Counted from the first letter of the stretch, positions 919 through 22,970 are shown. The stretch is 64,000 bases of DNA from Amoeboaphelidium occidentale (GCA_023515795.1 JALGPX010000005.1:62001-126000), one strand, 5' to 3'. The notes: generated by a model from the letters alone, not told the origin. Numbers and translations are program-made.

Positions 919-1302
919 TTTGTAGATTGGAAAATTCTGTGAGGGATTTTCGTGGTTACAGCAATCTGGTAGCCAATCAGCTTTTTCATGGTACTCGTCG
1001 CTCTGTACTGTTTCATTAACCCCTTGCAGGAATGATAAAAATGTCATCCCAAAGTTCGCTCTGAGCAGGCTGCTTCAGTTCTCAATCCGCGGCTGGCTAA
1101 TGGTCGTTTGAAATCTGACTTGGGAAAGGATCTGAATTATAGATCGATTCGAGTCCAAACAACTGATGTTCATCATACGCATTTCCAACACTTCTATAAC
1201 GAGAGCCTGCCGATATCGATTGAAGATATTGAAAGTTGAAACTTCATCTAGTAGAGATTACAGGATGTTCATGAACTTTGTCTGATTTTCTGTTTTGACA
1301 GG

Positions 1303-2640: not shown

Positions 2641-2886
2641 TAATAAAGATTCTTGATCAGTTTCATGCTTTTCAGCTGATTGTTTCAAGTTGAGCCGAGC
2701 ATAATATGCGAAGATTTTCAAAGCGATTTTTCAGATTTTTCATTTTGCGAAACAAAATATTTTTCAGGGGCGCAAGAAAAACACGTGCTTTGCTCCTGAT
2801 TTTTGGCCCAATCGGCTCAATTTCGATTTTAAGGGGCAGCCGCGCATAAAAGCGGCCATAATCGCGGAGTATTTTCCTAATCAAAA

Positions 2887-4479: not shown

Positions 4480-4555
4480 ATTCGTTCTAATGCGAACAAT
4501 AAATTTTTTGAATCGAAAGGCGATGCTGCAATTCCTAGCATTTAAATTTAATTAA

Positions 4556-5422
4556 TCAAAGCTTTAGTGTCAACTTAATATCGACATAGTGATGATTAGA
4601 ACCTTTTTCATAGCTTCGTAATTCTGTCGACATGTTTTCGATGGAAGTTTTGGTACTTTGGCAAAAAATTGAAATCAGCACAGGAACGAAATGCTCCTTG
4701 ATAAGTTCATAAAACGCCTTTTCATTTTGCTGTGCTAACATACACACCGGGCTCTGCATAAATACATGGCTGTGTTTCATTAATGCTCCAAGGGATTTTA
4801 AGTTTAAGCTCAGAGATGGAGTTTCATTGTTGAATCTCTGAAACTCACAATGAATTTGACATGATCTTACTGTAATTTTCATCTTCAAACTCACGCTCTT
4901 TTCAGTCTCCTTTTTGAACCTAGCCCATGAAACATCCAGAAAGCTTTGGAGATACAAGTCATTTTTCTGAACCATTCTGCGGCATAGCTGAATGGCCAAA
5001 TCACAAATCTGTAATTCTGCTTCGCGATAAATCACGTCCGCAACATCAGTCACGCAACTAATCTCAGAACCTTCGACAAAACCACAAAAATCCTGCGGCA
5101 AAGGAAAGCCCAAATAATTGAAAGTTAAAGCAAGACTTTTCATCGTGTCAGCAACATTGCATTCGTGCTCCTTCTTTGCAAATAGGTAAATCTCACGCAG
5201 CGGCAATTCGCCTGTCTCAAAATGCGTCAAAACAGCCTCGAGCAACTCTGGATGATCAAGTGTTAGCATATATTGACCAGAACCATTCCTTGTGGACATC
5301 ATCTGATCTTCTTTCAAGAGATTATAAAGGAAGGAGTCTTTCGGGAATCGTTCAAACAAATCTCTTGAGATTTCGATCACTCTACCGTTATTCGCACAAA
5401 TCTGAAAATCGCTAATAGTCAT
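4556..5422 (-). CDS. BTB/POZ (KCTD/T1-type) domain protein
   Basis: N-terminal NNGRVIEISRDLFERFPKDSFL...YMLTLDHPELLEAVLTHFETGEL...FNYLG. Confidence 0.65.
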   Translation of the reverse strand: MTISDFQICANNGRVIEISRDLFERFPKDSFLYNLLKEDQMMSTRNGSGQYMLTLDHPELLEAVLTHFETGELPLREIYLFAKKEHECNVADTMKSLALTFNYLGFPLPQDFCGFVEGSEISCVTDVADVIYREAELQICDLAIQLCRRMVQKNDLYLQSFLDVSWARFKKETEKSVSLKMKITVRSCQIHCEFQRFNNETPSLSLNLKSLGALMKHSHVFMQSPVCMLAQQNEKAFYELIKEHFVPVLISIFCQSTKTSIENMSTELRSYEKGSNHHYVDIKLTLKL

Positions 5423-5493
5423 TTTATTGGAGAAGTATTCAGTTTCTTAAAGATTTCAAAATTGTATTCCGTGATGAGTCACCACGATTCTGA

Positions 5494-6249
5494 TTAGAAC
5501 TTCTTCCCAAGAACATGCAGAATTTCCGTGCGATAACCAATTAATAATCTTATTTCTTTTAATTTATCATCAGTCAGTCCTGGTAAGTTTACATGATTTA
5601 TGCCATGTTGATCAAATGCATCGCTGATAACCTGTATGTATTTATCAGGGTGCCTATTCTCACGCAGAGCTTCGTAGAATTTATCCATACTGTTAAAATT
5701 GACTGACTTAGCATTTGAAACTTCCTGATTCCCAGTATTATATTCTAGAGGAGGATTGACCTGCAGTTTATCACCTTCTGTGAAAAAATAATATTTGTGT
5801 TTGTCGCGTAAACAGGATACCGCGGAAATTATACAATAATGTCCATCTGAATCTCGCGAATACAATTTCCTTGCGGGAGTTTTCAAATCAAGATCTTTCG
5901 ACAAAGTCATTTTTGCCAGGAACGACTCCATCGATAAGCCTGACATCTCTGTGACATCAAATAACACACAGTATCCATTAGTAGCTTCAATTGTAACAAT
6001 ATCCTCTTCCGATAAATCTGAGAAGTGATCTATTAACACAGATTTCAATTCATTTAGTAGTTGGAATATATTCAATTCCACAGACAATGCAACTTTCACA
6101 TTTGTATGATAACGTCTTGATGGTTCATGCAGCCTTTTCTCGACGCGAAACCAAACCTTCTTTGGTGACAGAAACTCTTCGATCGCAGTTTGGAGTCCGC
6201 TGCAATCTTTTGGGATGGTACATTCAAACAAGCGTCCATGCTGACTCAT
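5494..6249 (-). CDS. Hypothetical protein with C-terminal SAM-like domain
   Basis: 251-aa ORF; C-terminal AFDQHGINHVNLPGLTDDKLKEIRLLIGYRTEIL resembles the SAM consensus. Confidence 0.5.
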   Translation of the reverse strand: MSQHGRLFECTIPKDCSGLQTAIEEFLSPKKVWFRVEKRLHEPSRRYHTNVKVALSVELNIFQLLNELKSVLIDHFSDLSEEDIVTIEATNGYCVLFDVTEMSGLSMESFLAKMTLSKDLDLKTPARKLYSRDSDGHYCIISAVSCLRDKHKYYFFTEGDKLQVNPPLEYNTGNQEVSNAKSVNFNSMDKFYEALRENRHPDKYIQVISDAFDQHGINHVNLPGLTDDKLKEIRLLIGYRTEILHVLGKKF

Positions 6250-6491
6250 TCTAGTGAAAATGATTTTCCTTTTTGAAATAAACGTGAAGAAATGCTACTT
6301 ATCCAATCATCATCATGGAGTGAGGTGTTCAAGTAAATAACCAGAAGTCTTCTAGCGATTCTGTGGAGTATGGAATTTATTATTTAAAGATTGCCACGAG
6401 AGCGATATTAACAAATCGAAAGTCTTCATAAAAGGTTCTCTCATTTTACTTTTCTTTTTGAAGAGCGATTGAAATAGCGCAGCGTGAACTA

Positions 6492-8019
6492 ATGGCAATT
6501 TTCCACAAAGATTTGTACACCAGCAAATATAAGTCCCTATTGTGTCTCTCCTTTGCTGTTGCTCTCAACGTTTGCTTATGCATGTATACCCTTCATGTAT
6601 TAAGTTCGTCGAAGAACGAGGGGACATGTATTCCGGCAGAAGGGAGCGACAGGGCAGACATCCACGTCAAACTAAAGGAGTCTTTCATTCTGTATAGCAA
6701 CATGAGCGAGAAACATAATCTTTGTGTCGAACGCTGTGAAGAAGCAATCCAGAATTTGGAGCGAACGATGGATAAACCAAAGCCAAAAATTACCATAGAA
6801 GCAGTTGGATATTTCGCAAGACCTATTCTTGAGCTCGACGATAGTTTTACCGACATTTGGAGTAAGAATCCTTTATCGGAAGATTATGAGCCTTACAGTA
6901 GCTGGACTTCAAATGCTATTCCGCATGTATTGGCGCTTATTGGGACAATTTGTCACGAGTATGTGGAAGTTCATATACGGCAGTTTCTACTTTACAATGA
7001 TATTATGCATGTGTTATCGACTCCAGAGTGTCAGGAGTAAGTTGAAGCTTGGTATGAAATTAACTTTGTTAAGAAAGTACCGTGCTGCTGGAGCAATGGT
7101 ACATAATGTTTACGACTACATGGAAAGCGCTGATCGATTTGACCGCCTTTATCCACGTGTTCTTCCTAATGGTGACGGTACCGGTTCCAGGCGTGCTTTT
7201 GAATTGTCTTGCTTTCAGAGGTGGTATATTATTAAGGATTTTATGCGGAAGAATAAGATTCCCCGCGTGTTTTCTGCTGATGCCGACACTCTGATATTTG
7301 TCAACGTCACGGAGCATATCCTTAAACACTTTGCTGACGATAAGATAATTCTAATGTGGAATTATCCGACTGTTAGTAACAGTTACATATCTTTTGATTA
7401 TGAAGGTATTACAGATATGCTGGCGTTCTTCGATTATTTCTTCACCCATTTGAGCTTATACTTGCCTAATGTAAAAGAGGGAAACTTCTTTTTGTATATG
7501 AATGATATGAACTTATCAAAGATTTACGGCATCAAGGCAATTTGTGGGTCAAATTGGGAGACCTGTCCACTTTTAGCTAACGACTCCGTGCCTAAGAATC
7601 ATGATGCATTTTACAATACTGCTTATGTGTTTCAACCACGACTGGCATTTTTGGTTGAGAAAGTGGCTGCTATCATTCCATCCAGTTGGACAGATTCTTC
7701 CAAAAGTCTCTTATCCTTTGATAACAACATCGCTTCTCCTCTTTCGATTTATGAAACAGTTGAAACTTTAAAGCGTGTTACATTCTATAATGGAGGTACA
7801 TACTTGACACTAAAGAGTGAAGCATGTCCAGCAATTTTGGAAGAATTTCCATGGACTGAAAGCGGAACTAATTGTTCTTTCCAGACTTTAGGCTTACACT
7901 TTTATAGCTACTACAAGAATTTGATGAGCAATTACACTTTAACCGAAAAATTTGTGGGTGATGATAGCTATTGTTCATGTTTAACCGATGGTTGTGACAA
8001 TTGCGCCGGCCTACAGTAA
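6492..8019 (+). CDS. Type II membrane GT-A glycosyltransferase-like protein (2 exons, intron 7037-7073)
   Basis: A GTAAGT...TAAC...AAG intron (37 nt) joins ORF 6492 to ORF 6805 in frame (CQE|KYRAAG). It has a TM anchor, a coiled stem and ELSCFQRWY...VFSADAD (DxD). Confidence 0.65.
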
Positions 8020-8282
8020 CTAAAGCTCAAAGCTTTTGAGACAATAATTTTAATCATAAAATAATTATTATTATTCACTTTACATGTTTAGTTTTAGTTC
8101 AATTAGTCAGTCTAACTAATGATAAAATGAACTTTAAGCGCCCAAATCACATAAAGTGACACCCCTATGGACACAAGACAATCCTGCTAGCAAATCTCTT
8201 TCTTCTCATGTGATATTCTAGCAAAACGATTTTTCAAGTATTCGAAGCTGATGAATTGAACCAATAGCCATTATCTGAATGT

Positions 8283-9116
8283 ATGCGCTGGCATTTTCGA
8301 AAGTTTTTGTTATCTCGTTCCGATATGTCAAAGATATTGAAGGAATTATGCTCTGATGAGAATGAACTAAAAAAGTTTCAAGAATTAGAGAGTTATTTTG
8401 CAGATTTAGATGTTTCAGATATCGATATCCTGTCTGATACTAAAGATCTAATTCAGGACGTTGAACCAGCACACAGACTGAGAATGAGGGTGTTTATAAA
8501 GAAATACCTGGAACCAAGACGGCAGGCAAAATTTGTTGGTTCTAGAAAAGTAGCAGAAGGGTTGCACGAAGAGGGAAGATTTTTGTATGTTCAAGGTGGT
8601 GCTTTAATCTCAAATGCATTTGCTACTGTTGATTCCGAGCGTTTGACTATTGCTCGCTTTCATGAAAGTCTGCTGGAAGATCCTGGTCAAATTAAATATA
8701 TCGACATGTCCATGAACGATCTATTGTCTTCAGATTTGCGTTTGGTTGCGGATATGATCACGGATCTTTCAGAGAAGAATATGATCGGAACGAATGGATT
8801 GATTTTGAATTTGTCTGATAATAGGATTCACGGATGTGGAATTTTAAACTCTGTCAATGATCAAGCCCTTCATACAATTATTAGCATCGTTAAATTTGTG
8901 GATTTACGCGCGAATCCTTTTGTTTCAGTTGATCGCAGAGATTTCTTTGAGAGCTTCACACCCGACTCTGCAGCATGCTCAAAGTTGATATGGGTACACG
9001 AATTTCATTTGAACACTCACGGATGGCGTCGCTTTGTTCCTGAAAATGTAATTGATAAAGTAATTGAAATCCATAGGGAATATTACGCCTGGATGAAAGA
9101 AAATGGGCAGACATGA
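8283..9116 (+). CDS. Hypothetical protein with LRR-like repeats
   Basis: LxxLxLxxN-like units IDMSMNDL, LNLSDNRI and VDLRANPF. The true start may be MSKILKEL. Confidence 0.5.
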   Translation: MRWHFRKFLLSRSDMSKILKELCSDENELKKFQELESYFADLDVSDIDILSDTKDLIQDVEPAHRLRMRVFIKKYLEPRRQAKFVGSRKVAEGLHEEGRFLYVQGGALISNAFATVDSERLTIARFHESLLEDPGQIKYIDMSMNDLLSSDLRLVADMITDLSEKNMIGTNGLILNLSDNRIHGCGILNSVNDQALHTIISIVKFVDLRANPFVSVDRRDFFESFTPDSAACSKLIWVHEFHLNTHGWRRFVPENVIDKVIEIHREYYAWMKENGQT

Positions 9117-9235
9117 TCTAATCACTAACTGAGTAAATTCTAAAAATCGTTTAAACCGGAATTTCACCATCTGAAACAGTCGTTTTAACTTTGATTCCAT
9201 CGCTGTCTTTTCTTAAATACCCAGCGCGAGATTAA

Positions 9236-9577
9236 ATGGCAGCCTCCAAAAACGCATCAATTCAAAGCCCAGAACAAACAGAAGCACATTTACCTGTTGG
9301 TGTCTGCGTTAAAGTTTCCAGCTTGAGACCAAAATATAGCGACCTGAAACAATGGTGCGCAGTGCCTGGACATTTACTTGCTACAAGACATGGTCTTGAT
9401 AAATCTCTGAAGTTGTTTGAAAAGTATCTGAGTGAAAAGCTCTCCGTCGATGCTGCTACAAGAGAAAGATTCATGAAACTGTCTGCCTGTAAAGAACTGG
9501 GATGTTTTTGTAATCCTGCAGAAAAGTGTCATCGCGACATAATAATCAGAAAGCTTTATGAACTAATACAAAGTTAA
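9236..9577 (+). CDS. DUF4326-like protein, internally shortened
   Basis: VKVSSLRPKYSDLKQW at the N-terminus and ELGCFCNPAEKCHRDII (CxC...CH.D) at the C-terminus. Confidence 0.65.
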   Translation: MAASKNASIQSPEQTEAHLPVGVCVKVSSLRPKYSDLKQWCAVPGHLLATRHGLDKSLKLFEKYLSEKLSVDAATRERFMKLSACKELGCFCNPAEKCHRDIIIRKLYELIQS

Positions 9578-9610
9578 TACTATTTCAATAAGCATTAATC
9601 ATTTGTTAAA

Positions 9611-9696
9611 ACGCGTAACTTGAGTGACTCATCATTTCAACGCGAAACACGTGAATTTGACGCGTGAATTTTCTCACCAACAGAATAGTATAAATA
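9611..9696 (+). promoter_or_regulatory. DMC1 upstream region with MCB-like ACGCG motifs, an AP-1-like site and a TATA box
   Basis: ACGCGT 9611-9616, TGACTCA 9625-9631, ACGCGAAA 9640-9647, CACGTG 9648-9653, ACGCGT 9660-9665, TATAAATA 9689-9696; ATG at 9743. Confidence 0.55.
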
Positions 9697-9742
9697 CCGC
9701 CCTCAAATGTACCCCATTTTTCATTCCACTCTGAAATTCTGA

Positions 9743-10877
9743 ATGCAGTCTCAACTGAAACAACAACAGGAAGATGTCAATGCTACACAAGATCAACAGA
9801 ATGACTCATCCTTAAACGACGAAGTAAACAAACCCCAAACAAACAAACACTAACATATAAGGAAACATACTTTCAGGATATTGATGAATTACAGAATGAA
9901 GGAATAGGAATGGCTGATATAACAAAATTGAAACAGGCAGGATTGTGCACTGTTAAAGGAGTCCAAATGACTGTTAAAAGAAATCTACTGAAAATCAAAG
10001 GAATGTCTGAACAGAAAGTTGACAAGATTCTGGAAGCGTGTAGAAAACTGAATAATTGTGGTTTCATCTCTGCAAAAGAATGTGAAGTCAGAAGACAGTC
10101 AATCTACAGAATATCAACAGGATCAAAAGAATTTGACAGATTATTGGGTGGAGGAGGAATACAGTCAATGTCAATAACTGAAGTATTTGGAGAATTCCGC
10201 TGTGGCAAGACGTAAGTTGTTGTTTCAGAAGTTCCCATAGCTAACATTTAAGCCAGTTGTCTCATACTCTTTGTGTTACGTGTCAGTTGCCCGTTAGTGA
10301 AGGTGGCGCATCAGGAAAGGCAGCATACATTGACACTGAAGGAACATTCAGACCAGAAAGATTGAAACAGATTGCAGAACGTTTTAATTTGGATCCTGAT
10401 GAAGTTTGTGATAATGTTATTTATGCTCGTGCTTTTAATTCAGAACATCAAATGGAATTAATAACTCAGATTGCTGCTAAATTTGCAGAAGAAAGGGGTG
10501 TCTATAGGATTCTAATTGTTGATTCCATAATTGCCTTGTTTCGTAGTGATTACTGTGGCAGAGGTGAATTGGCTGAGCGTCAACAGAAGCTGAATCAAAT
10601 GTTGTCTCGTTTAATGAAGATCAGTGAAGAATTCAATGTTGCTGTATTCATTACAAATCAAATGCAATCTGATCCTGGTGCTGGAATGTCATTTGTTCCT
10701 GATCCAAAGAAACCTGTTGGTGGATGTATTCTTGCTCATGCTTCAACAACAAGAATATCTCTAAGAAAAGGAAGAGGAGAAACAAGAATAGCAAAAGTAT
10801 ATGATTCTCCTGATGTGTGTGAGTCAGAAGCTGTGTATGCGATAACAGAAGGAGGGATACAAGATGGCAGTGATTAG
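9743..10877 (+). CDS. DMC1: Meiotic recombinase DMC1 (introns 9824-9861, 10212-10252)
   Basis: The spliced product reads [32 protein letters not shown] and [15 protein letters not shown]. These residues are DMC1-type rather than RAD51-type. Confidence 0.92.
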
Positions 10878-10928: not shown

Positions 10929-12881
10929 ATGATTTACAGAACTGAAAGCAGCAATAATTTACTAATTCAACATTATGAATCTACACTGACTCTAATTAAC
11001 ACTTCTACTCCATCATTAAAGAAGAAGAACCTAACTGCTACGACTGCATCCTCACTAATAAACTCAGATTCATCTATCCACCCCTTTCAACAGGGCGTGT
11101 TGGTTCAGAATAAGAACAGCATAGAAGAAATACTCTTTAGTAATGGAAGACACAGACTAATTGAACCATTGGAATTGAAGGCTGATGAGAATCGTTCTAT
11201 TCTGTTGAGTTTCTATGGAAAACAGCAACAACAGTTGTTCTTGAATGTTGTAATGTCTAATGGTGAACTGTTGAGAATTAATACTTTTACTAATAATAAT
11301 TGTGAAAAGATTATGGAAAGAAGGTCTTTTAAAAGCAGTAAAGGGAATCAGAGTACCAACAAGAAGGGATACTTTATAGAAGATTACAATGAAGATGGTG
11401 AAGAGGAAGAAGAAGATATTAGAAAAGTATACTTAAAGAAATCCTCTACTGATAAAGAAGAAGATTCTTACTTATACTTTTTACTGGATAATGACTTGAT
11501 TGTGAAGAAGAGTGCGGAATCTTATGTGACTATTGAAGAGTATAACATTCCTCCTCCTCCTGAAATTGAAGACAACTTCATAGTAAATGACTTTAGTGTT
11601 CATTCATATTCTGATTCTACTACTGCTACTTCTACAAATGATGATGATGATGAATTGAGTCTGGATATTATAATTATACAGAGTTCTTGTTCATCTTCTA
11701 CAACAGCAGCAACAACAAATCTGTCCTTGTATCTTCCTATTGATGATGGTGAATTATTACTCTTGACCAGAATCATTATACCCTTTATCGATGAAGGAAT
11801 ATCATATCAATTACACAATTCATTATTATTTCTTCTTTTACCAACAATTAATAATAATTCTTCAAGACTGATGGTTTATGATTTACATTTGGATTCAATT
11901 ACACAATTCTATACTTCTAATGAATCTCTTGCGTTTACTAAACCTGAGTTGGTTTCTTGTGTGGAATTCAATTGTCCTGTTGAATCATTTGTAGTTTATA
12001 ATGATTTACTAAAGGGATTAGTAATGTATTATGAGAATGCACTGAATAAGAAAGTAGAAGAGTATTCATTAGATTATCTTCTATTGTACAAAGTATTTAT
12101 ACCCACAAAAGATTCTTCTATTTCTAAGCAGCAGCAGCAGCAAGAAGAAGAAGAAGAAGAGATGGAAGAAAATCTACTAAGATTGTCCCCACTTCAACAA
12201 CACTTTTCTGCTTTTGTAAAGAAATTCCAAACATCTTCTGATGGTGTTGAGATTGAATTCAAGAGATTGTTGTTGCAATTAAAGATTAAACAGGAATCTT
12301 CTGCTGGTATTGAAGAAAGTTATCCACACTTTCTCTCAAAGCAAGAAGGAGTCTACAATGATCATTTAATGGAAACAAGAAAGATAATTAAACAAATAAT
12401 GAGTGAATATCTGACTGCATTACAAACAAGAAAGGAATTGATTCAGCAGCAATTGCAATTGAGTAGTGAATTATTATTAGGATTGCCTGATAGTTATGAT
12501 CCGGTTGGGGCTGAAGTGCTGCAAAAGAGACTGGAGAAATTACTTGCAAATTCTGAGAGACTTGACAAGAGATCGACGCTGTTGTTGTCCATTTGTATGG
12601 ATTTAATGTATCCGCTGTTGAGTGATTCAGAACAGAAGTTTAAGGCAGAGATTGTTTCTTTTAAGAAGAGAGTTGATAGAATTAGGAATGATTTGGTGAA
12701 ATACAGAAACATAATTGTAAAGTATGGATTCAGTACTAAAGAGCAAGTAGAACATCCTGAAGTAAATTCTGTTCATAATATTCCTGTAATGATGAGTGGA
12801 TTAGAAAAGAATCAACAGTTTCTAAAAAAGGTTTGTGATAAAGTCAAGGAGATTGAACAAAAGATGGAATTAATAGAATAA
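10929..12881 (+). CDS. Nup82/Nup88-like nucleoporin (divergent)
   Basis: Beta-rich N-terminal half and C-terminal coiled coils with the PLLSDSEQKFKAEI motif; many low-complexity E/D/Q/S runs. Confidence 0.5.
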   Translation: MIYRTESSNNLLIQHYESTLTLINTSTPSLKKKNLTATTASSLINSDSSIHPFQQGVLVQNKNSIEEILFSNGRHRLIEPLELKADENRSILLSFYGKQQQQLFLNVVMSNGELLRINTFTNNNCEKIMERRSFKSSKGNQSTNKKGYFIEDYNEDGEEEEEDIRKVYLKKSSTDKEEDSYLYFLLDNDLIVKKSAESYVTIEEYNIPPPPEIEDNFIVNDFSVHSYSDSTTATSTNDDDDELSLDIIIIQSSCSSSTTAATTNLSLYLPIDDGELLLLTRIIIPFIDEGISYQLHNSLLFLLLPTINNNSSRLMVYDLHLDSITQFYTSNESLAFTKPELVSCVEFNCPVESFVVYNDLLKGLVMYYENALNKKVEEYSLDYLLLYKVFIPTKDSSISKQQQQQEEEEEEMEENLLRLSPLQQHFSAFVKKFQTSSDGVEIEFKRLLLQLKIKQESSAGIEESYPHFLSKQEGVYNDHLMETRKIIKQIMSEYLTALQTRKELIQQQLQLSSELLLGLPDSYDPVGAEVLQKRLEKLLANSERLDKRSTLLLSICMDLMYPLLSDSEQKFKAEIVSFKKRVDRIRNDLVKYRNIIVKYGFSTKEQVEHPEVNSVHNIPVMMSGLEKNQQFLKKVCDKVKEIEQKMELIE

Positions 12882-13366
12882 TTCTGTAAAAAAAATTTAT
12901 TTGGCGCGGTGCGGTGATCCTTCGGGTGTTAATTTCAAGTCACCAGATTCTTCTTGGACTGTGTCTTTGCCCTTCTTTACCAGAAATGATAATTCTAATT
13001 ACAATTAAGTCTGTGTCAGAATCGTTCAAATCTACGATATGCTGCGACGCCTAAAACGAGCATTGCCATTGGTGCCAGTTCAGGGTCGATTTTAATGAAT
13101 TCTCTAATTTTTCTAAGCATTATTTTATGTCCGTTGTAAAATGATTTGAAACTTTGAAAGAGTTTTGCGTGGATTTATCGCGCCAGTGTTTCTGATTGGT
13201 CGGAATGTTTTGATACGCAACAGAATTAGAGTTTCATCTTCTTTGCTCGCTTCTTGTCACTGTTTTGCCATTACTCTGAGTAAATATGTTTTAGAATGTT
13301 TAAGATGAGACTTTAAATGGATGTTTCAGATGGAGAAATTCAATTTCCGTACAGTGATCACTAGAA

Positions 13367-14731
13367 ATGTTACTGCTACTACAATTGCTTCTCGTGTTCT
13401 TGGTACTGGTGCAATACACTCTAGCTCAACAACAGCAATGTTCATCTACAAGAATTAGGTATAATTGGTTTGATCTTCCTGCAGAGTACCAGCAGAGATA
13501 CATTAGAGCAATGAATACACTTCATAGAGAATCAGATAGATACAATGCAATCACCAGAAGGCATGTTCAGAATGTTAATCAGTGGCACGGTCTTTCGGTG
13601 TTTTTACCGGCACACAGGGCAATGTTGTTGGAATTGGAACAAGCATTGAGGACTATTGATCCTGGTTTGGTTATTCCGTATTGGGATTGGAGCATAGACG
13701 CATCAGCTCCACATCAGAGTCGTATTTGGGAAACATATGGTAGATCACAGCCATATCAGTGTGTCACTCAGGGGGCATTTGCAAATTGGCAAGTTCCGCA
13801 ACCGAATCCACATTGTGTTTCAAGAGGTATTGATTTTCAGAGTGGCACCGGAGCATGGTGGAGCTCAGAAGTTTTGGGTTTGCTGGTTAGAAACACGCCT
13901 GATTTCGGTCAATTCGCTTCAACATTGGAAAATTCTCCGCATAATCTTGTGCACTTGGCTATTGGGGGTGGTGGTAGCGGTGGTCAAGCGCCTGGCGATA
14001 TGGCTTACAGAGATATGTCACCTAATGATCCGTTATTCTATATGCATCACGGATTCGTTGATAAACTCTGGTTCGACTGGCAATCTTATCACAATCCACA
14101 GGGGGCTAACCGTTTCAGCGGTAATACGAATACTCAAATTCCTGGTTACTCTTACACAGTGGAAAATATTCTAAATACGAGAGACTTGTGTTACGTTTAC
14201 GCTCCTCCAGGTACTGCCTTTTCTGGTCCTGAAGTTCCTAATGGAGGCGTGCCAACAAGTTCTTCCATCCCAGCACCTATACCGACTTCAACTACTTTTA
14301 TAGCTCCCATGACAACTACAGCTGTTGTTTCTACGCCTGGAGTACAAACTCCAACTATCTCAGTTATCGTGATACCAACAGCATCAGTCACACTACCACC
14401 AGTACAAATATCAAGTACTGTGCCGCCTTCTCCGCCGGATATTTCAGTTACAATTCCTGTTTCTGTGCCAATTTCAACTATCAACATACCAAGCACGCCT
14501 CCTCCAGAAATTATACCAATTTCAACTGTTGCTCCGATAGTTCCAACAGAAACATTAGCCACGCTTCATCCTCCAGAACATCCTCCTACTGATCAGAAAT
14601 GCAATGACACAATTCCTTGTGTTGGAAAGTATTGTGGAAAGAAGGCAATACCTTATCTCGACCAATGCAAGGATCAAAAGATCATTTGCGTGAACCAATA
14701 CCTGGTAGAATTGTTGAATGCACTTAAATAG
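13367..14731 (+). CDS. Secreted tyrosinase (type-3 copper protein) with Pro/Thr-rich linker and Cys-rich tail
   Basis: Signal peptide; CuA RRH...WHG...FLPAHR; PYWDW; CuB PHNLVH...SPNDPLFYMHH. Confidence 0.92.
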   Translation: MLLLLQLLLVFLVLVQYTLAQQQQCSSTRIRYNWFDLPAEYQQRYIRAMNTLHRESDRYNAITRRHVQNVNQWHGLSVFLPAHRAMLLELEQALRTIDPGLVIPYWDWSIDASAPHQSRIWETYGRSQPYQCVTQGAFANWQVPQPNPHCVSRGIDFQSGTGAWWSSEVLGLLVRNTPDFGQFASTLENSPHNLVHLAIGGGGSGGQAPGDMAYRDMSPNDPLFYMHHGFVDKLWFDWQSYHNPQGANRFSGNTNTQIPGYSYTVENILNTRDLCYVYAPPGTAFSGPEVPNGGVPTSSSIPAPIPTSTTFIAPMTTTAVVSTPGVQTPTISVIVIPTASVTLPPVQISSTVPPSPPDISVTIPVSVPISTINIPSTPPPEIIPISTVAPIVPTETLATLHPPEHPPTDQKCNDTIPCVGKYCGKKAIPYLDQCKDQKIICVNQYLVELLNALK

Positions 14732-14739
14732 ATTTAGAT

Positions 14740-15282
14740 TTATTTCTTACCTTTGTAAGATGATATTATTGCATGAACATCCCTATTTGTAACATTTTTG
14801 GAGTATTTGTAATGGCGCATACATTTGTGCTTCTGCTTATTCAAGATCTCTAAATCGATGATAACTTGTTCCATATGCTTTCGTATGCTTTCCTTTAGAG
14901 TATCAAAGTAATTCTCTTTGAAGCGTTTGGTGCCGTACACTTCACGAGCGATCTTTCGTAGTGTTTGCCTTCTGAAAAACATGCCACCTTTGGCAAGGCC
15001 GTACTTCTTCCGCGTAGATGGCGTTTGTTCGTGTTCCATAGTATCAGCGTTGTCGTTTATTTCTATTCTATGCCTTAATGCAAGGGCTTTCGATTCTCTA
15101 AGAGCCTCTTTGTCTTGTAGTAACATATTTTGAGAGAACAAAGTCTTTGTGCCCCGAAGAGAGGAAACTCCATAGCAAGATGTGAATTCCCGCTTCTCAA
15201 GGGCATCATGAAACGCGCAAATTTCCTCTATAGCCCATTGGACGCCGCGATGGTTCATAATATCAAGGATCAAAACGATCAA
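14740..15282 (-). CDS. Basic protein with C-terminal H4/H3-like histone fold (divergent)
   Basis: FRRQTLRKIAREVYGTKRF...TLKESIRKHMEQVIIDL...NVTNRDVHAII parallels H4 AIRRLARRGGVKRI...VFLENVIRDA...TVTAMDVVYAL. Confidence 0.5.
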   Translation of the reverse strand: MIVLILDIMNHRGVQWAIEEICAFHDALEKREFTSCYGVSSLRGTKTLFSQNMLLQDKEALRESKALALRHRIEINDNADTMEHEQTPSTRKKYGLAKGGMFFRRQTLRKIAREVYGTKRFKENYFDTLKESIRKHMEQVIIDLEILNKQKHKCMRHYKYSKNVTNRDVHAIISSYKGKK

Positions 15283-15361
15283 AACTCGTGTTTCATGTCA
15301 CGATTGATGGCTGTTTCAGTTTCAGGACGGAATTCTACGCTGAATTTCTTTTTATCATAGA

Positions 15362-16429
15362 ATGAAAGACTTAATATACGCGCTTGCGGCTTTAGCCCTG
15401 CTCTCTTTAAGGTGCATTGCTACAGATAGATGTTGCACGGTTGATACAAGAAAAGACTGGGCTAATGTGACTCCGGAAGATCACGACGCTTTTATTTCTG
15501 GTCTTAGCTATCTGAAATCACAGGGATTTTATGATGCTTTTATTGGGAGGTATGTGAATGAGTGCGGCACTTGGAACTCTGCAAACGACTATCTACAAGG
15601 AAGCAGACGATATCTTCAGATACTACAAGAAGCATTAAGAGCGATTGATCCAAAAATTGTGCTTTCATACATCAATTTTACTTCTATTGCGAATGCTCAT
15701 GATGGTGCAGCTTCTTCTAAATTTGGCAAATGTGATCAAAACGATTGTGTTGTCTCAGACAAATTTCGCGACTGGCTTCCTTCTGATGGTTGCTTAAAGC
15801 GTAATGTTGCATTCTTGAAGGACTTTCCATACAAAAACTCAATATCTGATGCAACAGATTTTGATCAGTTTGGCTCTTTAATGCGCAAAGCCATTTCGGG
15901 CTTCCTTGGTGGAAATTTTGATAATGCTCGAATGGATCCGATGTTTGTTCCATCACTAGTCTACCAGGACTTCCTATGGGAGGCGTGGATGAGAAAAAAC
16001 AAGAAAGGGCATCATTGCGTCAACTTATGTTATGACTATGACAACTCTGGAAGCTCGTTTATAGATTTTGGGCCAGGAACTGTTACTTCAGGAACCTCTG
16101 GAAGATCATCAGATGTAGAAATATCTGATGGTGGTAATGAGGCTATAAACAAAACTTCTGGGGGCTCAATTACATCACCAATAGGCGTAGACGGAAAGGC
16201 AATTTCACCTACAGGAACCTCATCAGGTATAAATGGACGAGATCTAAATTCTGACAAGAATGGCGGCAATTCTAATAATACAGCAAGGCATCCTGCTAGC
16301 AACACAACGTCAACAATAAGCATTAGTCCAACAGCTTCACCTAGCTTAGTTGTATCGAGCGCATACAGTGTTACTGCGTCAACATTAACTCTGATACCAA
16401 TCTGTTTGATCTTGCTTGTTTCAACGTGA
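15362..16429 (+). CDS. Tyrosinase-fold pseudo-enzyme, secreted and probably GPI-anchored
   Basis: The scaffold is retained (RKDW, QEALRAIDP, CV..C.R, DPMF, LCYDY), but no His remains at the CuA/CuB positions. S/T/G-rich stalk and hydrophobic C-terminus. Confidence 0.75.
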   Translation: MKDLIYALAALALLSLRCIATDRCCTVDTRKDWANVTPEDHDAFISGLSYLKSQGFYDAFIGRYVNECGTWNSANDYLQGSRRYLQILQEALRAIDPKIVLSYINFTSIANAHDGAASSKFGKCDQNDCVVSDKFRDWLPSDGCLKRNVAFLKDFPYKNSISDATDFDQFGSLMRKAISGFLGGNFDNARMDPMFVPSLVYQDFLWEAWMRKNKKGHHCVNLCYDYDNSGSSFIDFGPGTVTSGTSGRSSDVEISDGGNEAINKTSGGSITSPIGVDGKAISPTGTSSGINGRDLNSDKNGGNSNNTARHPASNTTSTISISPTASPSLVVSSAYSVTASTLTLIPICLILLVST

Positions 16430-16513
16430 AACACTCTTGAAACCCTTTAGAAGTCAGATAAATAGACCGATACACTCTACATTTTATTTCTATAATCTAC
16501 ACATCCTTTTACA

Positions 16514-16816
16514 ATGAAGTGTCTTTCACGTGCTTACATGTTCATCGCTGCTGCAGTATTGATGCTCTCAGTCAATGCTTCGCCAATACCTCAAGAATCG
16601 TCCTTATTCGCAGGAACAGAAAAATGCGACTGTGTTGGGTGTGAATTGACTGCTGCAGAACGTGCCGCATGTGACGCACAAGCACATATGCATTTACTGA
16701 CATCTATGGCGAACTCACAGAGTGGCATTCAAGCATCACAATCTGGCCGCTCGATGCCTGTTTCAAATAACTCTGATCCTGCAGCAGGAGATTTTGTCAT
16801 CATGCCACCACAATAA
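16514..16816 (+). CDS. Small secreted protein (100 aa) with CxCxxC and HMH motifs
   Basis: Signal peptide ending VNA-SPIP; CDCVGC...C...HMH. Confidence 0.65.
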   Translation: MKCLSRAYMFIAAAVLMLSVNASPIPQESSLFAGTEKCDCVGCELTAAERAACDAQAHMHLLTSMANSQSGIQASQSGRSMPVSNNSDPAAGDFVIMPPQ

Positions 16817-17143
16817 ATACAATTGATAACTGTGCCAGTCCTAATATTCAGAGCTCAAGCTCAAGCTTCTACACACACTGCGAGCTGGAGTGCGAATGCG
16901 CGCAAGTTGAGGGTTAAAAGCCTTATAACCTGCTACTTAATAGATATTCCAGGTTCGTGGCGTAAGCGTTTCTATGGGAACACAAACTTTTGCTACTTAG
17001 CGCACAAGTCAAATTCTTCACACGAGATTGGCTCATGATTGTGAGTACAACATGTTTCACAACGATTATAATGCCAAGCTTGTTAAACGAGTTCCGTATT
17101 GTCTTCTTATTGTGATATAATTAATTTGTACTGAATACCATTA

Positions 17144-19383
17144 ATGATTTTGTCTAAAGTATCGAGTATTCTGGCGTTGGTTATTCTCGCAGCGTCGCAG
17201 GTTGCTGCACAAGCTTCTCTTCCAAACTGTCGCGGGAGGATTCGTATTAGATATGAATGGCGTGATCTTCCAAGAAATGAACAGCAAAGATATCTCAATG
17301 CGGTTGTGAGATTGCATAGAGAGAGAAATAATTTTGAGCGGTTCACACAACAGCACAGAAGATTCTTTTCACAGTGGCATGGTAGTGGCATGTTTCTTCC
17401 AGCTCACAGAGCTCTTTTGAACGAGTTTGAGGAAGCATTGCGTCAGGTCGATCCTGATGTTGTGGTTCCATATTGGGATGAAGGGTTGGACGCTAGCAAT
17501 GCACTCAATGCTGTAATTTGGCGAGACTTTGGCACTGTTACGAGAGGAACATGTGTTACCGATGGTGCTTTTGCTAATTGGCCATTGAGGATCCCTAACC
17601 CCCATTGTTTGACAAGAAACTCCACAAGTGTCGATGCTACGTTAGACTCAGCTGAACAAGTTAACCGTCTAATCGTAACAGCACCAAACTACGCTGCGTT
17701 CAGAGATGAAATGGAAAATGTCATTCACACGAGATTGCACATCCTGGTGGGAGGTCCTGAGGGAACGGGTGACATGGTTTACGATTTCTCTCCTAATGAT
17801 CCTATTTTCATGCAGCATCATGCATACGTTGATAAAGTATGGAATAATTATCAGCTGTTTGCTCCAAATCGCTTCACTGAGTACAATGGAAATGTGAATG
17901 CTAACATTCCTGGATATAATTACAGAGTTCGTGATGTTTTTGACACCAGAAATTTATGCTTTGTTTACGCAGAACCTGGAACAGCTTACAGAGGTAATTA
18001 TGTTGACGGTCCTAGTTCATCAACAACCATGATTGTAACTTCATCTACCAGAGTTGCAACATCTTCTACCAGAGCAGTTACTTCTTCAACAAGGATTGGA
18101 ACATCGTCTACCAGAGTTGCAACATCAACAACCGGAGTTGCAACATCGTCTATTCGAAGCTCTTCCTTGGGATCAAGCACTCGCGTTACGACATCTTCTT
18201 TGGCTCCAAGCTCCANGGTCCTAGTTCATCAACAACCATGATTGTAACTTCATCTACCAGAGTTGCAACATCTTCTACCAGAGCAGTTACTTCGTCAACA
18301 AGGATTGCAACATCAACAACCGGAGTTGCGACATCTTCAACCAGAGTTGCAACATCGTCTATTCGAAGCTCTTCCTTGGGATCAAGCACTCGCGTTACGA
18401 CATCTTCTTTGGCTCCAAGCTCCACAAGAACTTCAGGTGGCATCTCAACAACCTCGAGCTCAGCCGGAACGTCTACTCTTGCTCCAGGTTCATCAAGTGC
18501 AACTCGAACTTCTGTTGTCCCAACTGCAACTGTTCCGATCACCGGAAACTTGACTTCAACAACCAGAGCAGGTGGATCGACAATGGTTTATTCCGTTATT
18601 ACTAACTACGTTGCAAGCACAAGGACTTATTACACTTCTGTTAATTTCTCCACAAAAATTGGTCCTACTGTGTATTTCAATTACTCGGAATCCTGGGACG
18701 ACAGTATCAGCTACCATCCTCACGTCACAACAAGCTTTTACTACGTTCCAATCCAAACAAGCAGTGCTGAGTATGTAACACCTTCTCCATCGACAAGAGG
18801 TCCGTCATCTACTGCAGCACCAACAGGAACATCCGTCGTCAGTCCTTCTTCTACTGTGTTGCCAACAATTGTCACCTCAGGCACTGTCATCTATCCAACA
18901 CAGTCCTCTGCATTGCCGACAAACGCTCCAAATACGACTGTTGTCTATCCAACACAGTCTTCTCAACTATCAACCAACGCTCCTGCTACCACAGTTATCT
19001 ACCCGACTCAAACTTCCAACATGTCTTCCATCTATCCTAATGCAACTTCAAGCGTGCAAGGAACTAGCACTGGTCTCCCTATTCCAACTTACTTCCCAGA
19101 GGTTTATGATTTCCAGTTCAAGCCAGAAAAGATCTATAAGCCTGTTGTAGTTGGAAGCACCACCAAATATGTTGCGCCAACTGGAGCTCCAACGTTTGCT
19201 CCTGTTCCTGAAAGAAAAGTCGATGTTCATGAAGTCAATTTTGCAAACACAAGCCCAGAACAGCCATTGGTTCAAGTTCACCCAGGAAAAGAATACGAAA
19301 ACACATCTGTTAGTGCCGCAAGCTCGACTGTTGTGTTTTCATCTGCTGCAGTTATTTCCTTTATTATGGCGCTTTTCATGTGA
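17144..19383 (+). CDS. Secreted tyrosinase with long Ser/Thr-rich mucin-like stalk and GPI-like C-terminus (split by N at 18216)
   Basis: CuA QQH...WHG...FLPAHR; CuB IHTRLH...SPNDPIFMQHH. ORFs 17144 and 18238 are joined across a duplicated flank at the ambiguous base. Confidence 0.85.
18008..18425 (+). repeat. About 208-nt near-duplicate on each side of N18216, built of 21-nt (7-aa TSSTRVA) units
   Basis: ggtcctagttcatcaacaaccatg...ggctccaagctcca occurs at 18008-18215 and again at 18217-18425. Confidence 0.9.
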
Positions 19384-19486
19384 AAGCGCGTCAATAAAAT
19401 CTCGTTTGAAATTTCTTGTTTCAGAAATCGCGGTTTCACACAATCAAAACTCTCAATATTGTTTCATCTTTTCTAAACAGCAAGAG

Positions 19487-19750
19487 ATGTTGAAGTTATA
19501 CTCAGTTCTGGCTATTACTTGGTTGTTTTCCTTAAATGCATGCCAGCAATTGCCTCCGTTGCCTGATAGAATAAGCAATGAAACAATTGCCAGCAGAGGA
19601 ATGAACTTCGAACATATTCGTTCAGCAGAGAACTATTTGATAGGGCTTTACGATACTGCCTTAAGACTAAGAGCCTCTGGATCTCCAATTCCTGGTCCTG
19701 GTGAAATTGGCTCCGCTCAAGTCATGCAGCAACTCTTTGGATCGCGTTGA
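19487..19750 (+). CDS. Small secreted protein (87 aa) resembling the tyrosinase C-terminal post-catalytic segment
   Basis: Signal peptide MLKLYSVLAITWLFSLNAC; gapless 49-aa similarity to 20895-21041. Confidence 0.7.
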   Translation: MLKLYSVLAITWLFSLNACQQLPPLPDRISNETIASRGMNFEHIRSAENYLIGLYDTALRLRASGSPIPGPGEIGSAQVMQQLFGSR

Positions 19751-19952
19751 ACCAAGTAAAATAGATAAATCAATTAATCTTTCTATTTCCAAGAAGCACG
19801 ATGTTGCGTTTTAAGATTATTTATCGGAGTTTCGCAGGAATGCCTCTTACAAGCATCCAATGGAGATCACGATCCAAGTGATTGATGTAACATGAGTTGA
19901 ATCCTGCCGTTATTTCAAGTTCGTGCTTTATTATTTTTTATAATTGACAGCT

Positions 19953-21293
19953 ATGAAGATTTTAATCTACATTTTAGAAGTTTGTGTATTAGCTGCATCC
20001 ACGATGGCTTCTTATCGAATTCCAGACAAATGCAATGGAAATGTGGTGATCAACGTGGAATGGCATTCTATGACTGTCGCGCAAAAGATTGCTTATATGG
20101 AAGCTGTTTTGGAGTTAAACAGAAGAGGTTTCGACATTATGATGTCCGATCTTCATGCGAAACATGTACCAGACTGGCATCAAGGCTCATTGTTCTTCAT
20201 TGCACATCGCTACTTTACTCACTTGTACGAACAAGAGTTGCTCAAAATTAATCCTAACTTGGTTCTTCCATACATCGACTGGTCTTTGCTTGGTAACTCT
20301 GGAAACGCTAATGATCTATGGCAGTATTTTGGCGTTCCTGACAAGGACGAGGGCTGCGTGACAGGAAGGTACATAAACCCAGACAGTTACAAGGTTCCTA
20401 ACAGCGAGCTTGCTTTTAAAGGCCAGGCCTGTTTGCGCAGAAAATTGGAAAATCATCAGTATCAAACACCGGAGCTTTTGGGTGAATACATCAGAAAGTC
20501 AACCACTTTTCTTGAATTTGCAAGAAATAATGAACTGTGGCATACAAACATTCACGCGGCAATTGGCGGAGAAATGCTTTATGCTCACTCTCCTGCTGAC
20601 CCACTTTTCTATCCTTTGCATAAGTTTATGGATTTTCTATACTTTGCGTTTCAAAATACTGATCCTCAGAATCGAATGAATAGCTTTGGTGGTACACAGC
20701 CTTATGATAATGGCCGTGCAGTTGATGCTAACACAGAGATACCTGGATTCCCAGGAGTTCGAGTTCGAGACGTTTTCAACACGCTGGATTTATGCTACGT
20801 TTACGTAAATCCTAACACTCGATTCTCAGACTCTAAGATGGTGCTCCAGAACGGATATGTGCCACCTGCCCATTTCGGAAATCAGAACGTCACTATTCCA
20901 AGGCCTTCTCCAGTTACTCATGAAGCAGCAAGTAGATTCGGTTGGTCACAAGATGATGTTAATGAGGCTAACAACGCGTCTCAGCAAAACTATCAGGAAG
21001 TTCAAAGAAAGATTGAAAACAATATTCCCGTGCTTGGGCCTAACGTTGCTCCAGGGTCATCTATCAATGGTTTTGATCCATACCCACCATCACAATTTGC
21101 TATTTCACTTGATAAATCTGGTAGATTAGCAGAACAATTGATCAAGAATATTATACCAACGTATAATTCTTCAAACGGTTACTCTTATGGGGATGGTATT
21201 TCTACGGCACAAGGTAGTTCAGGTAATTCAATAGCTGCTTCCTTTGGAACTTTGTTTGTCGTGATCTTATTGGCAATTATTGGACTACGCTAG
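19953..21293 (+). CDS. Secreted tyrosinase with C-terminal helical extension and GPI-like tail
   Basis: CuA DLH...WHQGSLFFIAHR; CuB WHTNIH...SPADPLFYPLH; LCYVY; hydrophobic C-terminus. Confidence 0.9.
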   Translation: MKILIYILEVCVLAASTMASYRIPDKCNGNVVINVEWHSMTVAQKIAYMEAVLELNRRGFDIMMSDLHAKHVPDWHQGSLFFIAHRYFTHLYEQELLKINPNLVLPYIDWSLLGNSGNANDLWQYFGVPDKDEGCVTGRYINPDSYKVPNSELAFKGQACLRRKLENHQYQTPELLGEYIRKSTTFLEFARNNELWHTNIHAAIGGEMLYAHSPADPLFYPLHKFMDFLYFAFQNTDPQNRMNSFGGTQPYDNGRAVDANTEIPGFPGVRVRDVFNTLDLCYVYVNPNTRFSDSKMVLQNGYVPPAHFGNQNVTIPRPSPVTHEAASRFGWSQDDVNEANNASQQNYQEVQRKIENNIPVLGPNVAPGSSINGFDPYPPSQFAISLDKSGRLAEQLIKNIIPTYNSSNGYSYGDGISTAQGSSGNSIAASFGTLFVVILLAIIGLR

Positions 21294-21339: not shown

Positions 21340-21745
21340 ATGTCGCAAGTTCAGGAGGTAATTTCTCGCCAAGAACTCAAAATAAATAACTGAAGAAATG
21401 TTCTGTGTGCGATAAGGCGTGTTACGCTATGGAATCAGTGAAAGTGGAAACAATACTATATCACAAAGTGAGTTATTCCTCTTCATCTGACAAACGATGT
21501 AGACCTGCTTAAAATGCGCGCACTGCAATTGCATTGTTAGCTTGGGCAAATTCGCCGCGCTTGAAGGAAAATTCTATTGCAAACCTCATTTCAAACAGCT
21601 GTTCGCTTTGAATGGCAACTATCATACTGGATTTCTGCAAGTTCATAACGATTCGGTTGTTTCAGCTCCTCCATCTAATGCGCCTTCCCGTAAGAACACA
21701 GAACAGGTCCCACTTAGTAGTCTTGATGGACCAGATCAAATCTGA
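21340..21745 (+). CDS. Single-LIM domain protein (LIMD2/EPLIN-type; introns 21358-21395, 21468-21502)
   Basis: Spliced product [13 protein letters not shown]...[11 protein letters not shown]...[11 protein letters not shown]. Confidence 0.8.
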
Positions 21746-21837
21746 CAACATGTTCGATTAAAGCTAAACCGTGATCTCAGCTATTAATAGATGCGTGGTT
21801 TTTGATTCAACGAACGAATTGTCACTTCATTCGAGCA

Positions 21838-22860
<1,023 letters not shown>

Positions 22861-22970
22861 CTCTGAAAAATATACTTGTCTCGATTTTCGTCCAAACAGT
22901 CGCATTTCTAGCGAATCACAAATCGAGGTCTATCGTAAGGCTTCCAATTCCGTTTAGTGTTTTCCGATAA

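Follow-up and report, generated by a model that had tools for sequence, protein, structure and literature searches.

A tandem tyrosinase cluster in the aphelid Amoeboaphelidium occidentale includes a small, probably separate gene resembling the C-terminal tail of the enzyme family

Genes of the cluster

Within a 64,000-nucleotide (nt) stretch of the Amoeboaphelidium occidentale genome (JALGPX010000005.1:62001-126000; hereafter the window) we found a cluster of four tyrosinase-like paralogs and two small open reading frames (ORFs), small A and small B, which together occupy positions 13367..21293 of the plus strand (Table 1). Small B is the main subject of this report, as part of its product resembles a C-terminal tail carried by many members of the same enzyme family. 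The organism belongs to a group of algal parasites allied to the fungi, and is described as infecting Scenedesmus as a parasitoid: it forms a cyst, fixes itself with an appressorium and enters its host through a tube (PMC7325670).

ORF calling located each of the six plus-strand ORFs that a sequence-only reading of this DNA had proposed. The plus-strand order given there (TYR1, pseudo-TYR, small A, TYR2, small B, TYR3) also stood, but a minus-strand ORF of 172 amino acids (aa) with its own contig in the RNA-like set X4 (see below) interrupts the cluster between TYR1 and pseudo-TYR. The same reading had taken all six genes to be intronless and to encode signal peptides. The former is contested for small B and TYR3, which an NCBI gene model joins into one protein via a long intron. 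The latter was judged from hydropathy alone, as were all glycosylphosphatidylinositol (GPI) signals; the N-terminus of small B was the weakest (1.95), and both small B and pseudo-TYR were missed by a crude filter for signal-peptide-like ORFs. This filter returned four ORFs of 79-100 aa lying outside larger ORFs in the 64 kb, three of them away from the cluster, and small signal-peptide-like ORFs are thus not rare in the window.

With respect to transcription, we treated X4 and X8, which carry no RNA label, as RNA-like because they skip an intron-like GT-AG stretch of 41-46 nt in a neighbouring gene and because their contigs end near gene borders. X4 represents a related strain that is ~95-97 % alike, and among the matches listed it has separate contigs on TYR1, the minus-strand ORF, pseudo-TYR, small A and TYR2, so that small A and TYR2 do not share a contig there. 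We did not rank genes by contig depth, contigs do not reveal where a transcript ends, and the fact that X8 contigs do not cover small A or pseudo-TYR carries no evidential weight.

Table 1. Features of the tyrosinase cluster, in window coordinates
Feature	Position	Strand	Basis
TYR1	13367..14731	+	ORF, PF00264 match, hydropathy
172-aa basic orphan ORF	14740..15258	-	ORF, own X4 contig
pseudo-TYR	15362..16429	+	Intact ORF, family core hidden Markov model
small A	16514..16816	+	100-aa signal-peptide-like orphan ORF, X4 contig
TYR2	17144..19383	+	ORF, PF00264 match; 676 aa without allelic duplicate
Scaffolding artefact inside TYR2	18008..18424	.	Two allelic 208-nt copies flanking the N at 18216
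small B	19487..19750	+	87-aa ORF; residues 24-71 resemble the family C-terminal tail
TYR3	19953..21293	+	ORF, PF00264 match, AlphaFold2 model
TYR3 tail, residues 316-363 (in-cis counterpart of small B)	20898..21041	+	Model, position-specific scoring matrix

Tyrosinase cores and origin of the array

Three of the paralogs matched PF00264 far above the Pfam cut-off of 22.6 bits, namely TYR1 with 117 bits (E 1.6e-33), TYR2 with 113 (3.8e-32) and TYR3 with 67 (4.9e-18), and all three have six of the six copper-binding histidines, with TYR3 lacking only a seventh conserved His. We use 'tyrosinase' as a family label; any monophenolase or diphenolase activity is putative. Pseudo-TYR has none of the six histidines and no Pfam match, and at the same time it scored 63 bits on a hidden Markov model (HMM) of the family core, a value reached by 0 of 1000 shuffles; on this comparison it is clearly tyrosinase-derived. 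It retains three of the four conserved Cys, followed by a Ser/Gly linker and a hydrophobic GPI-like end, and is likely to be a non-catalytic surface protein.

The C-termini of the three enzymes differ, as had been described before. TYR1 comprises a signal-peptide-like N-terminus, a type-3 copper core, a Pro/Ser/Thr stalk and a C-terminal end with five Cys, and has neither the family tail nor a GPI-like end. In TYR2 the signal-peptide-like N-terminus and core are followed by a long Ser/Thr stalk with 21-nt repeats and a hydrophobic GPI-like end, again without the tail, whilst TYR3 has a signal-peptide-like N-terminus, a core, a tail at residues ~316-363 and a hydrophobic GPI-like end. The C-terminal hydropathy maximum is 1.43 in TYR1 versus 2.65 in TYR2, 3.41 in TYR3 and 3.01 in pseudo-TYR; the GPI anchors of the latter three are putative, and these ends may equally be single transmembrane anchors. 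A single X4 contig spans TYR1 (13260-14744), with at least 33 differences listed, those in the core comprising 11 synonymous and four non-synonymous changes among the ones listed. Pseudo-TYR is partly covered by X4 contigs, one of which, of low depth, has an extra base in a run of A (window 15993) that is either an error or a loss of frame in that strain.

In the window, TYR2 is broken at the sole N, which is flanked by two 208-nt copies differing at 10 places. In both X1 and X8, contigs pass from where the first copy ends directly into the sequence beyond the second, and X1 contains two 110-nt variants at half depth (49.3 and 49.1 versus 108.8). The copies are two alleles that the assembler stacked in tandem; the frame is open for 676 aa once the duplicate is discounted, and TYR2 is therefore intact. 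Three different routes into the protein collection failed to retrieve its protein, probably on account of the N, and the locus seems to be unreliably annotated in public records. The stalk of TYR2 (window 18238-19383) has 19 Tyr in 381 residues, more than the other stalks, making it a possible built-in substrate for cross-linking.

Core identity is 44 % between TYR1 and TYR2, 35 and 30 %, respectively, between these and TYR3, and 22-24 % to pseudo-TYR. A tree was built from 45 rows out of 156 cores, picked to span the matches, and in it a 98/87 branch separates the four window genes and the homologs P0039, P0002 and P0125 from the remaining rows. TYR1 pairs with TYR2 as its sister (94/86), the two adjoining the tail-bearing P0002 and P0125, and pseudo-TYR forms a long branch of uncertain place. 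By tree position the four genes constitute a lineage-specific tandem duplication array, and duplication explains most of the cluster. The closest named homologs are zoopagomycete (Syncephalis, Massospora, Entomophthora, Basidiobolus and Dispira), with the aphelid genes forming their own separate branch in our 45-row tree, which is not the published tree of type d/e enzymes. As zoopagomycete relatives are described as having expanded these enzymes (PMC10079182, PMC11803259), with a reported mean of 48 copies of the polyphenol oxidase (PPO) group in Entomophthoromycotina (PMC10079182), a tandem array with varied C-termini is ordinary for the family.

Further members were encountered elsewhere. 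A 39,349-base contig (X1 record 4) matches window 17786-17982 and indicates at least one further tyrosinase paralog elsewhere in the genome, which is also present in X4, X8 and X14. Two tail-less members, P0008 and P0012 (L006 10001-10828), belong to a cluster that includes a protein named from the myxobacterium Hyalangium; in the tree they fall within fungal rows. Scanning metagenomes with TYR2 gave no match. An alignment-based metagenome scan returned 80 distant loci, whose best segments were 20-41 % identical; many of these lie on short contigs, and no syntenic cluster is among them.

Neither of the other two ORFs appears to be connected with the enzymes. Small A encodes 100 aa, with a signal-peptide-like N-terminus and, in the mature part, four Cys; it also has an HMH motif. 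Its X4 contig (16527-16925) has all of its listed indels beyond the stop codon. We found no match of small A to the Cys end of TYR1, the family tail, Pfam or the ESM Atlas, no large-database homolog search having been aimed at it, and on the core HMM 153 of 1000 shuffles scored as high. The minus-strand ORF, whose stop lies 8 bases from that of TYR1 and whose X4 contig covers 14799-15261, had no Pfam or PDB sequence match, and 598 of 1000 shuffles equalled it on the core HMM; by these comparisons it is not a tyrosinase derivative. A histone fold, suggested by eye, found no support in the Pfam and PDB sequence searches. Both ORFs are likely to be bystanders. Between small A and TYR2, a 45-50-nt element (16849-16899) that occurs once in the window is also found on other X1 and X4 contigs, and is possibly a shared regulatory or repeat element.

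A two-helix C-terminal tail in the family

The tail comprises ~50 residues, in which a Pro-rich lead-in is followed by a short helix and then, after a Gly/Asn turn, by a long helix. Of the 22 non-self matches of a search made with the core only, 12 carry it, as do 126 of the 159 proteins in a set that had been enriched with a profile containing the tail. In the 15 proteins scanned no Pfam family covers it, and the known shielding-domain families PF18132, PF12143 and PF14830 matched neither the tail-bearing homologs scanned nor TYR3 nor small B. Searches by HMM, position-specific scoring matrix (PSSM) and lineage profile agree that TYR1, TYR2 and pseudo-TYR do not have a tail. As the sisters TYR1 and TYR2 adjoin tail-bearing P0002 and P0125, the simplest reading is that it was lost once, in the ancestor of the two.

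The tail of TYR3 is a diverged version that aligns with the family, is the best PSSM window of the protein and, on a profile made from P0002 and P0125, scores 25.5, the top value of 437 window segments. On the family HMM, however, it has no significant score, as 120 of 3000 shuffles do equally well. TYR3 has a homolog in a relative, P0039, with the same start and length and 94 % identity (26 of 446 residues differ). No core position separates tail-bearing from tail-less homologs, and covariation between tail and core over 88 rows gave no coherent signal.

Small B as a probable free-standing tail

The product of small B has 87 aa, with a weak signal peptide preceding the tail-like part, and the relative has a homolog, P0025, that is 93 % identical, equally long and keeps its own stop. 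The tail HMM and the PSSM were trained without window proteins. On the HMM small B reached 6.7 bits (1 of 3000 shuffles as high) and P0025 11.5 bits (0 of 3000). The PSSM ranked small B first among 647 window segments, and its score of 6.0 lies above that of every non-tail segment among 7385 locus segments (against 1.3). Gapless comparison with TYR3 residues 316-363 gave 11 identities in 48 positions, a result reached by 0 of 1000 shuffles, and its register is that of the PSSM; a lineage profile of three tails gave 19.3 (0 of 10000 shuffles; best decoy 10.7). Furthermore, small B keeps Arg45 and Glu48, which fall in columns that are 87 % Arg and 84 % Glu in the family, as well as the Gly turn and the helix periodicity.

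A number of observations weigh against this relationship or against a conserved role. Small B does not have the conserved aromatic residue (Thr33) or the 94 % conserved Asn (Leu59), and with Thr33, Ser36 and Arg37 at positions that in the family are an aromatic, Met and Asn/Met, it has no obvious hydrophobic plug. The scores themselves are low: pairwise BLASTP missed the match (E = 1.7), the tail HMM gave E 1.1 in a six-frame search of the window, and gapless matches to P0002, P0007 and P0016 taken singly were not significant. A lineage profile made without TYR3 gave scores as high as that of small B to several decoys and to 18 of 10000 shuffles, and both the 48-residue window and its anchor had been picked after the match was seen by eye. 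Strong purifying selection is unsupported, as the divergence of small B from its relative (6 of 87 residues) is near that of TYR3 and far above that of CCT3 (3-4 of 538). Lastly, 0 of the 12 tail matches in the 80 metagenome loci is free-standing.

Small B was modelled as all-helical, with no Foldseek match at E up to 0.001, and since sequences of the tail family made up the alignment behind the model, the agreement of its helices with those of TYR3 is not independent evidence; the best score in the ESM Atlas, 0.81, is at chance level. Taken together, the profile matches make it very probable that small B is homologous to the family tail. Moreover, an intact ORF that is 23 % identical to the neighbour's tail and of the same length in the relative suggests that small B has been kept as a protein. 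P0025 and P0039 are each on a Logan contig of 6336 bases, which suggests that the pair may be linked in the relative as well.

Predicted position of the tail over the core

In an AlphaFold2 model of TYR3 (12 sequences; predicted TM-score, 0.71) the tail forms helices at 323-327 and 333-355, with a predicted local distance difference test score of 71-88. The best structural matches of the core are Streptomyces and Priestia tyrosinases and AoCO4. Latent enzymes align over more residues of the model than the forms they are compared with: 285 for latent abPPO4 versus 248 for the activated form and 266 for pro-melB versus 240 for active melB, the extra range ending in the tail in both pairs; and 242 for tomato PPO with its C-terminal domain versus 225 for walnut tyrosinase. 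The alignments to the latent enzymes extend into the TYR3 tail on one side and into their lid domains on the other. A gapless count back from the range ends places the gatekeeper residues Phe454, Leu466 and Leu447 at TYR3 residues 324, 326 and 323, that is, in the short tail helix at 323-326 (gatekeepers of abPPO4, BtTYR and SlPPO1 numbered as given in PMC10526336).

Against a lid function stands the gatekeeper of melB, Phe513, which is the one of the four that does not fit this count. The position was read from a 12-sequence model and range ends, not from contacts, at a root-mean-square deviation (rmsd) of 3.4-4.1 and between folds that differ. Many tail-less family members exist, so that a lid is not required in the family. 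On this circumstantial evidence we lean towards a tail that in cis acts as a lid over the active site.

Alternative explanations for small B

Small B supplies the first 71 residues of the NCBI model KAI3662146.1 and TYR3 the last 438, which would make small B the first exon of TYR3 and give the protein a copy of the tail at both ends. Apart from the existence of the model, this reading has in its favour an in-frame GT-AG intron (19701-19977) and three residue differences in P0039 within the first nine TYR3 codons. That intron would be 277 nt long, against 34-41 nt elsewhere here (41 nt at an RNA joint and 34-37 nt for four GT-AG candidates in a LIM-domain gene), the ATG and hydrophobic N-terminus of TYR3 are kept in P0039 and the stop of small B in P0025, and a fused protein would keep part of a signal peptide internally. 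We consider such a fusion unlikely; given the short introns and the starts and stops that both genes keep in the relative, small B is probably a separate gene. It is very unlikely to be an alternative last exon of TYR2, one that skips the GPI signal and restores a soluble, tail-bearing isoform. In-phase candidates do exist (donor 19309 and an acceptor ending at 19546, just past the signal-peptide-like part), and the related P0002 and P0125 have the order core, stalk, tail, but the intron would measure 238 nt, small B begins with an ATG and a hydrophobic N-terminus of its own, and no long TYR2 form occurs among 661 candidates of 626-2000 aa, a negative that counts as weak evidence because the plain 676-aa form is absent too.

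A separate small B might still be a real, tail-derived secreted protein that no longer caps these enzymes, whether through another job, a paralog elsewhere as its partner or decay into a relic. The loss of conserved aromatic, Met and Asn positions, a divergence from the relative that is not below that of TYR3, the further paralogs elsewhere together with the large expansions known for these enzymes, and the absence of any core position that tells homologs with and without a tail apart all fit this account, which we rate as somewhat unlikely in view of the retained Arg45, Glu48, Gly turn and helix periodicity and of the place of the gene directly behind a tail-less paralog, TYR2, at 103 nt. Chance similarity between short amphipathic helices, with both small genes being unrelated orphans, would be in keeping with the low bit scores, the BLASTP value, the post-hoc window and the small secreted-like ORFs elsewhere in the window; we give it very little credence against three different profiles in one register, 0-1 shuffles in 1000-10000, a rank of 1 in 647 and a higher score for the relative's allele. 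Finally, a small secreted gene beside a tyrosinase had been likened to the melC1-melC2 pair of Streptomyces, in which case small A and small B would be MelC1-type caddies delivering copper to the tyrosinase directly downstream. MelC1 carries a twin-arginine export signal. Gene order alone suggests this kinship, along with the HMH motif and four Cys of small A that could bind metal, and it is scarcely credible: neither small protein matched PF06236 at E up to 0.1 or up to 10, neither has RR in its first 35 residues, the mature part of small A has no Tyr, small B has a single His, and TYR3 already has a tail of its own. What survives of the proposed functional partnership concerns small B, the probable homolog of the tail that TYR1 and TYR2 lost, and not small A, which nothing connects with the enzymes. 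By this homology the likely partners of small B are the tail-less enzymes, and not the downstream TYR3 that a melC order would imply.

A possible secreted lid

If small B is indeed a lid for tail-less enzymes, the following scheme may apply. Where a member carries the tail in cis, as TYR3 does, its short helix would cover the dicopper pocket, its long helix would return along the core, and the enzyme would stay latent until cleavage or displacement of the tail. Small B would have arisen via partial duplication of a tail-bearing gene, would bind a tail-less core (TYR1 or TYR2) in the secretory pathway and would be released outside the cell, so that quinone cross-linking or phenol oxidation would not begin before the cell surface is reached, most likely in the cyst or at the appressorium stage. 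That small B is a separate secreted lid for TYR2 and TYR1, with the binding and the transcript putative, is in our view a serious possibility that falls a little short of an even chance. A broader proposal is more tentative, and we hold it to be doubtful: that the uncharacterised secreted tyrosinases of early-diverging fungi carry a two-helix lid, which the aphelid split off as a secreted gene capping its tail-less enzymes in trans, would amount to a eukaryotic split zymogen that arose independently of the Streptomyces caddie and from another fold; the GPI paralog that lacks copper ligands might then serve as a sink for the lid at the surface.

Neighbouring genes

The GC content of the window is ~40 %, and that reported for the genome is 39.93 % (PMC10608142). 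Upstream of the cluster, a 650-aa low-complexity ORF (10929-12881) lies in a stretch of 32-34 % GC and has no Pfam match above the cut-off. A small spliced gene at ~12900-13122 on the minus strand is divergent from TYR1, has a 41-nt GT-AG intron (12995-13035) that is skipped in X8 and, by eye, resembles the NDUFA4/B12D family. Immediately 3' of TYR3 is an apparently unrelated multi-LIM-domain gene with short introns (21379-22863).

Comparison with known systems and significance

The type d/e PPOs of zoopagomycetes and chytrids are described as secreted and as having no characterised member (PMC11803259). They share with the aphelid enzymes a secreted PF00264 core, include the closest named homologs, and are expanded in parasites and uncharacterised; in contrast, the consulted sections of that paper describe no C-terminal shielding domain, whereas a two-helix tail is defined here and one aphelid gene probably encodes the tail on its own.

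The core fold has its best match in the Streptomyces MelC1-MelC2 system (1wx2: Z 27.5, rmsd 2.1, 243 aligned residues). The caddie of that system is described as a separately encoded cover of the active site, from a neighbouring gene on the same mRNA as the tyrosinase (PMC11608171), a covering role like the one proposed here for small B, and as a separately expressed C-terminal domain (PMC11608171, PMC6312201), with Tyr98 of MelC1 inserting into the active site (PMC6312201). In small B, Tyr50 and Tyr55 are on the long helix and none is in the short helix predicted over the pocket. Small B differs from MelC1 further in being predicted as all-helical, in stemming from the family's own tail and in having no evident copper-carrying residues or copper-chaperone role, and a polycistronic operon would be putative here.

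Latent PPOs possess shielding domains (PF18132 in fungi, PF12143 in plants, PF14830 in hemocyanin, and those of BtTYR and VsTyr) that are likewise C-terminal elements, follow a linker and, as predicted for the tail by our model, cover the active site. Unlike these, the tail has ~50 residues in two helices, has no Pfam match and sits on type-1 enzymes, its latency being a prediction. Fungal short PPOs (AoCO4, 4J3P; TtPPO, 6Z1S) are secreted type-1 cores which, like TYR1 and TYR2, have no lid, and they match the TYR3 model strongly (4j3p: Z 27.0, rmsd 2.5, 260 aligned residues); their alignment stops at TYR3 285-286, before the tail, and in the portions of the literature consulted neither stalk-plus-GPI forms nor a free tail gene were seen for them. 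Our literature search, in which subscription journals were mostly uncovered, found no paper on aphelid tyrosinases, this tail or a eukaryotic free lid gene, and the parts of two reviews that we consulted treat a separately encoded active-site cover as a feature of Streptomyces (PMC11608171, PMC10526336).

Should small B turn out to be only an exon or a relic, the locus would be an ordinary duplication array, and the tail domain itself would still be undescribed in the literature searched. If the lid reading of small B is true, a group of enzymes expanded in parasites would own a small lid domain that an aphelid supplies in trans. A portable tyrosinase lid of ~50 residues would be of interest to enzyme engineers, and the locus would be a candidate for how a parasitoid of algal ponds hardens or glues its cyst.

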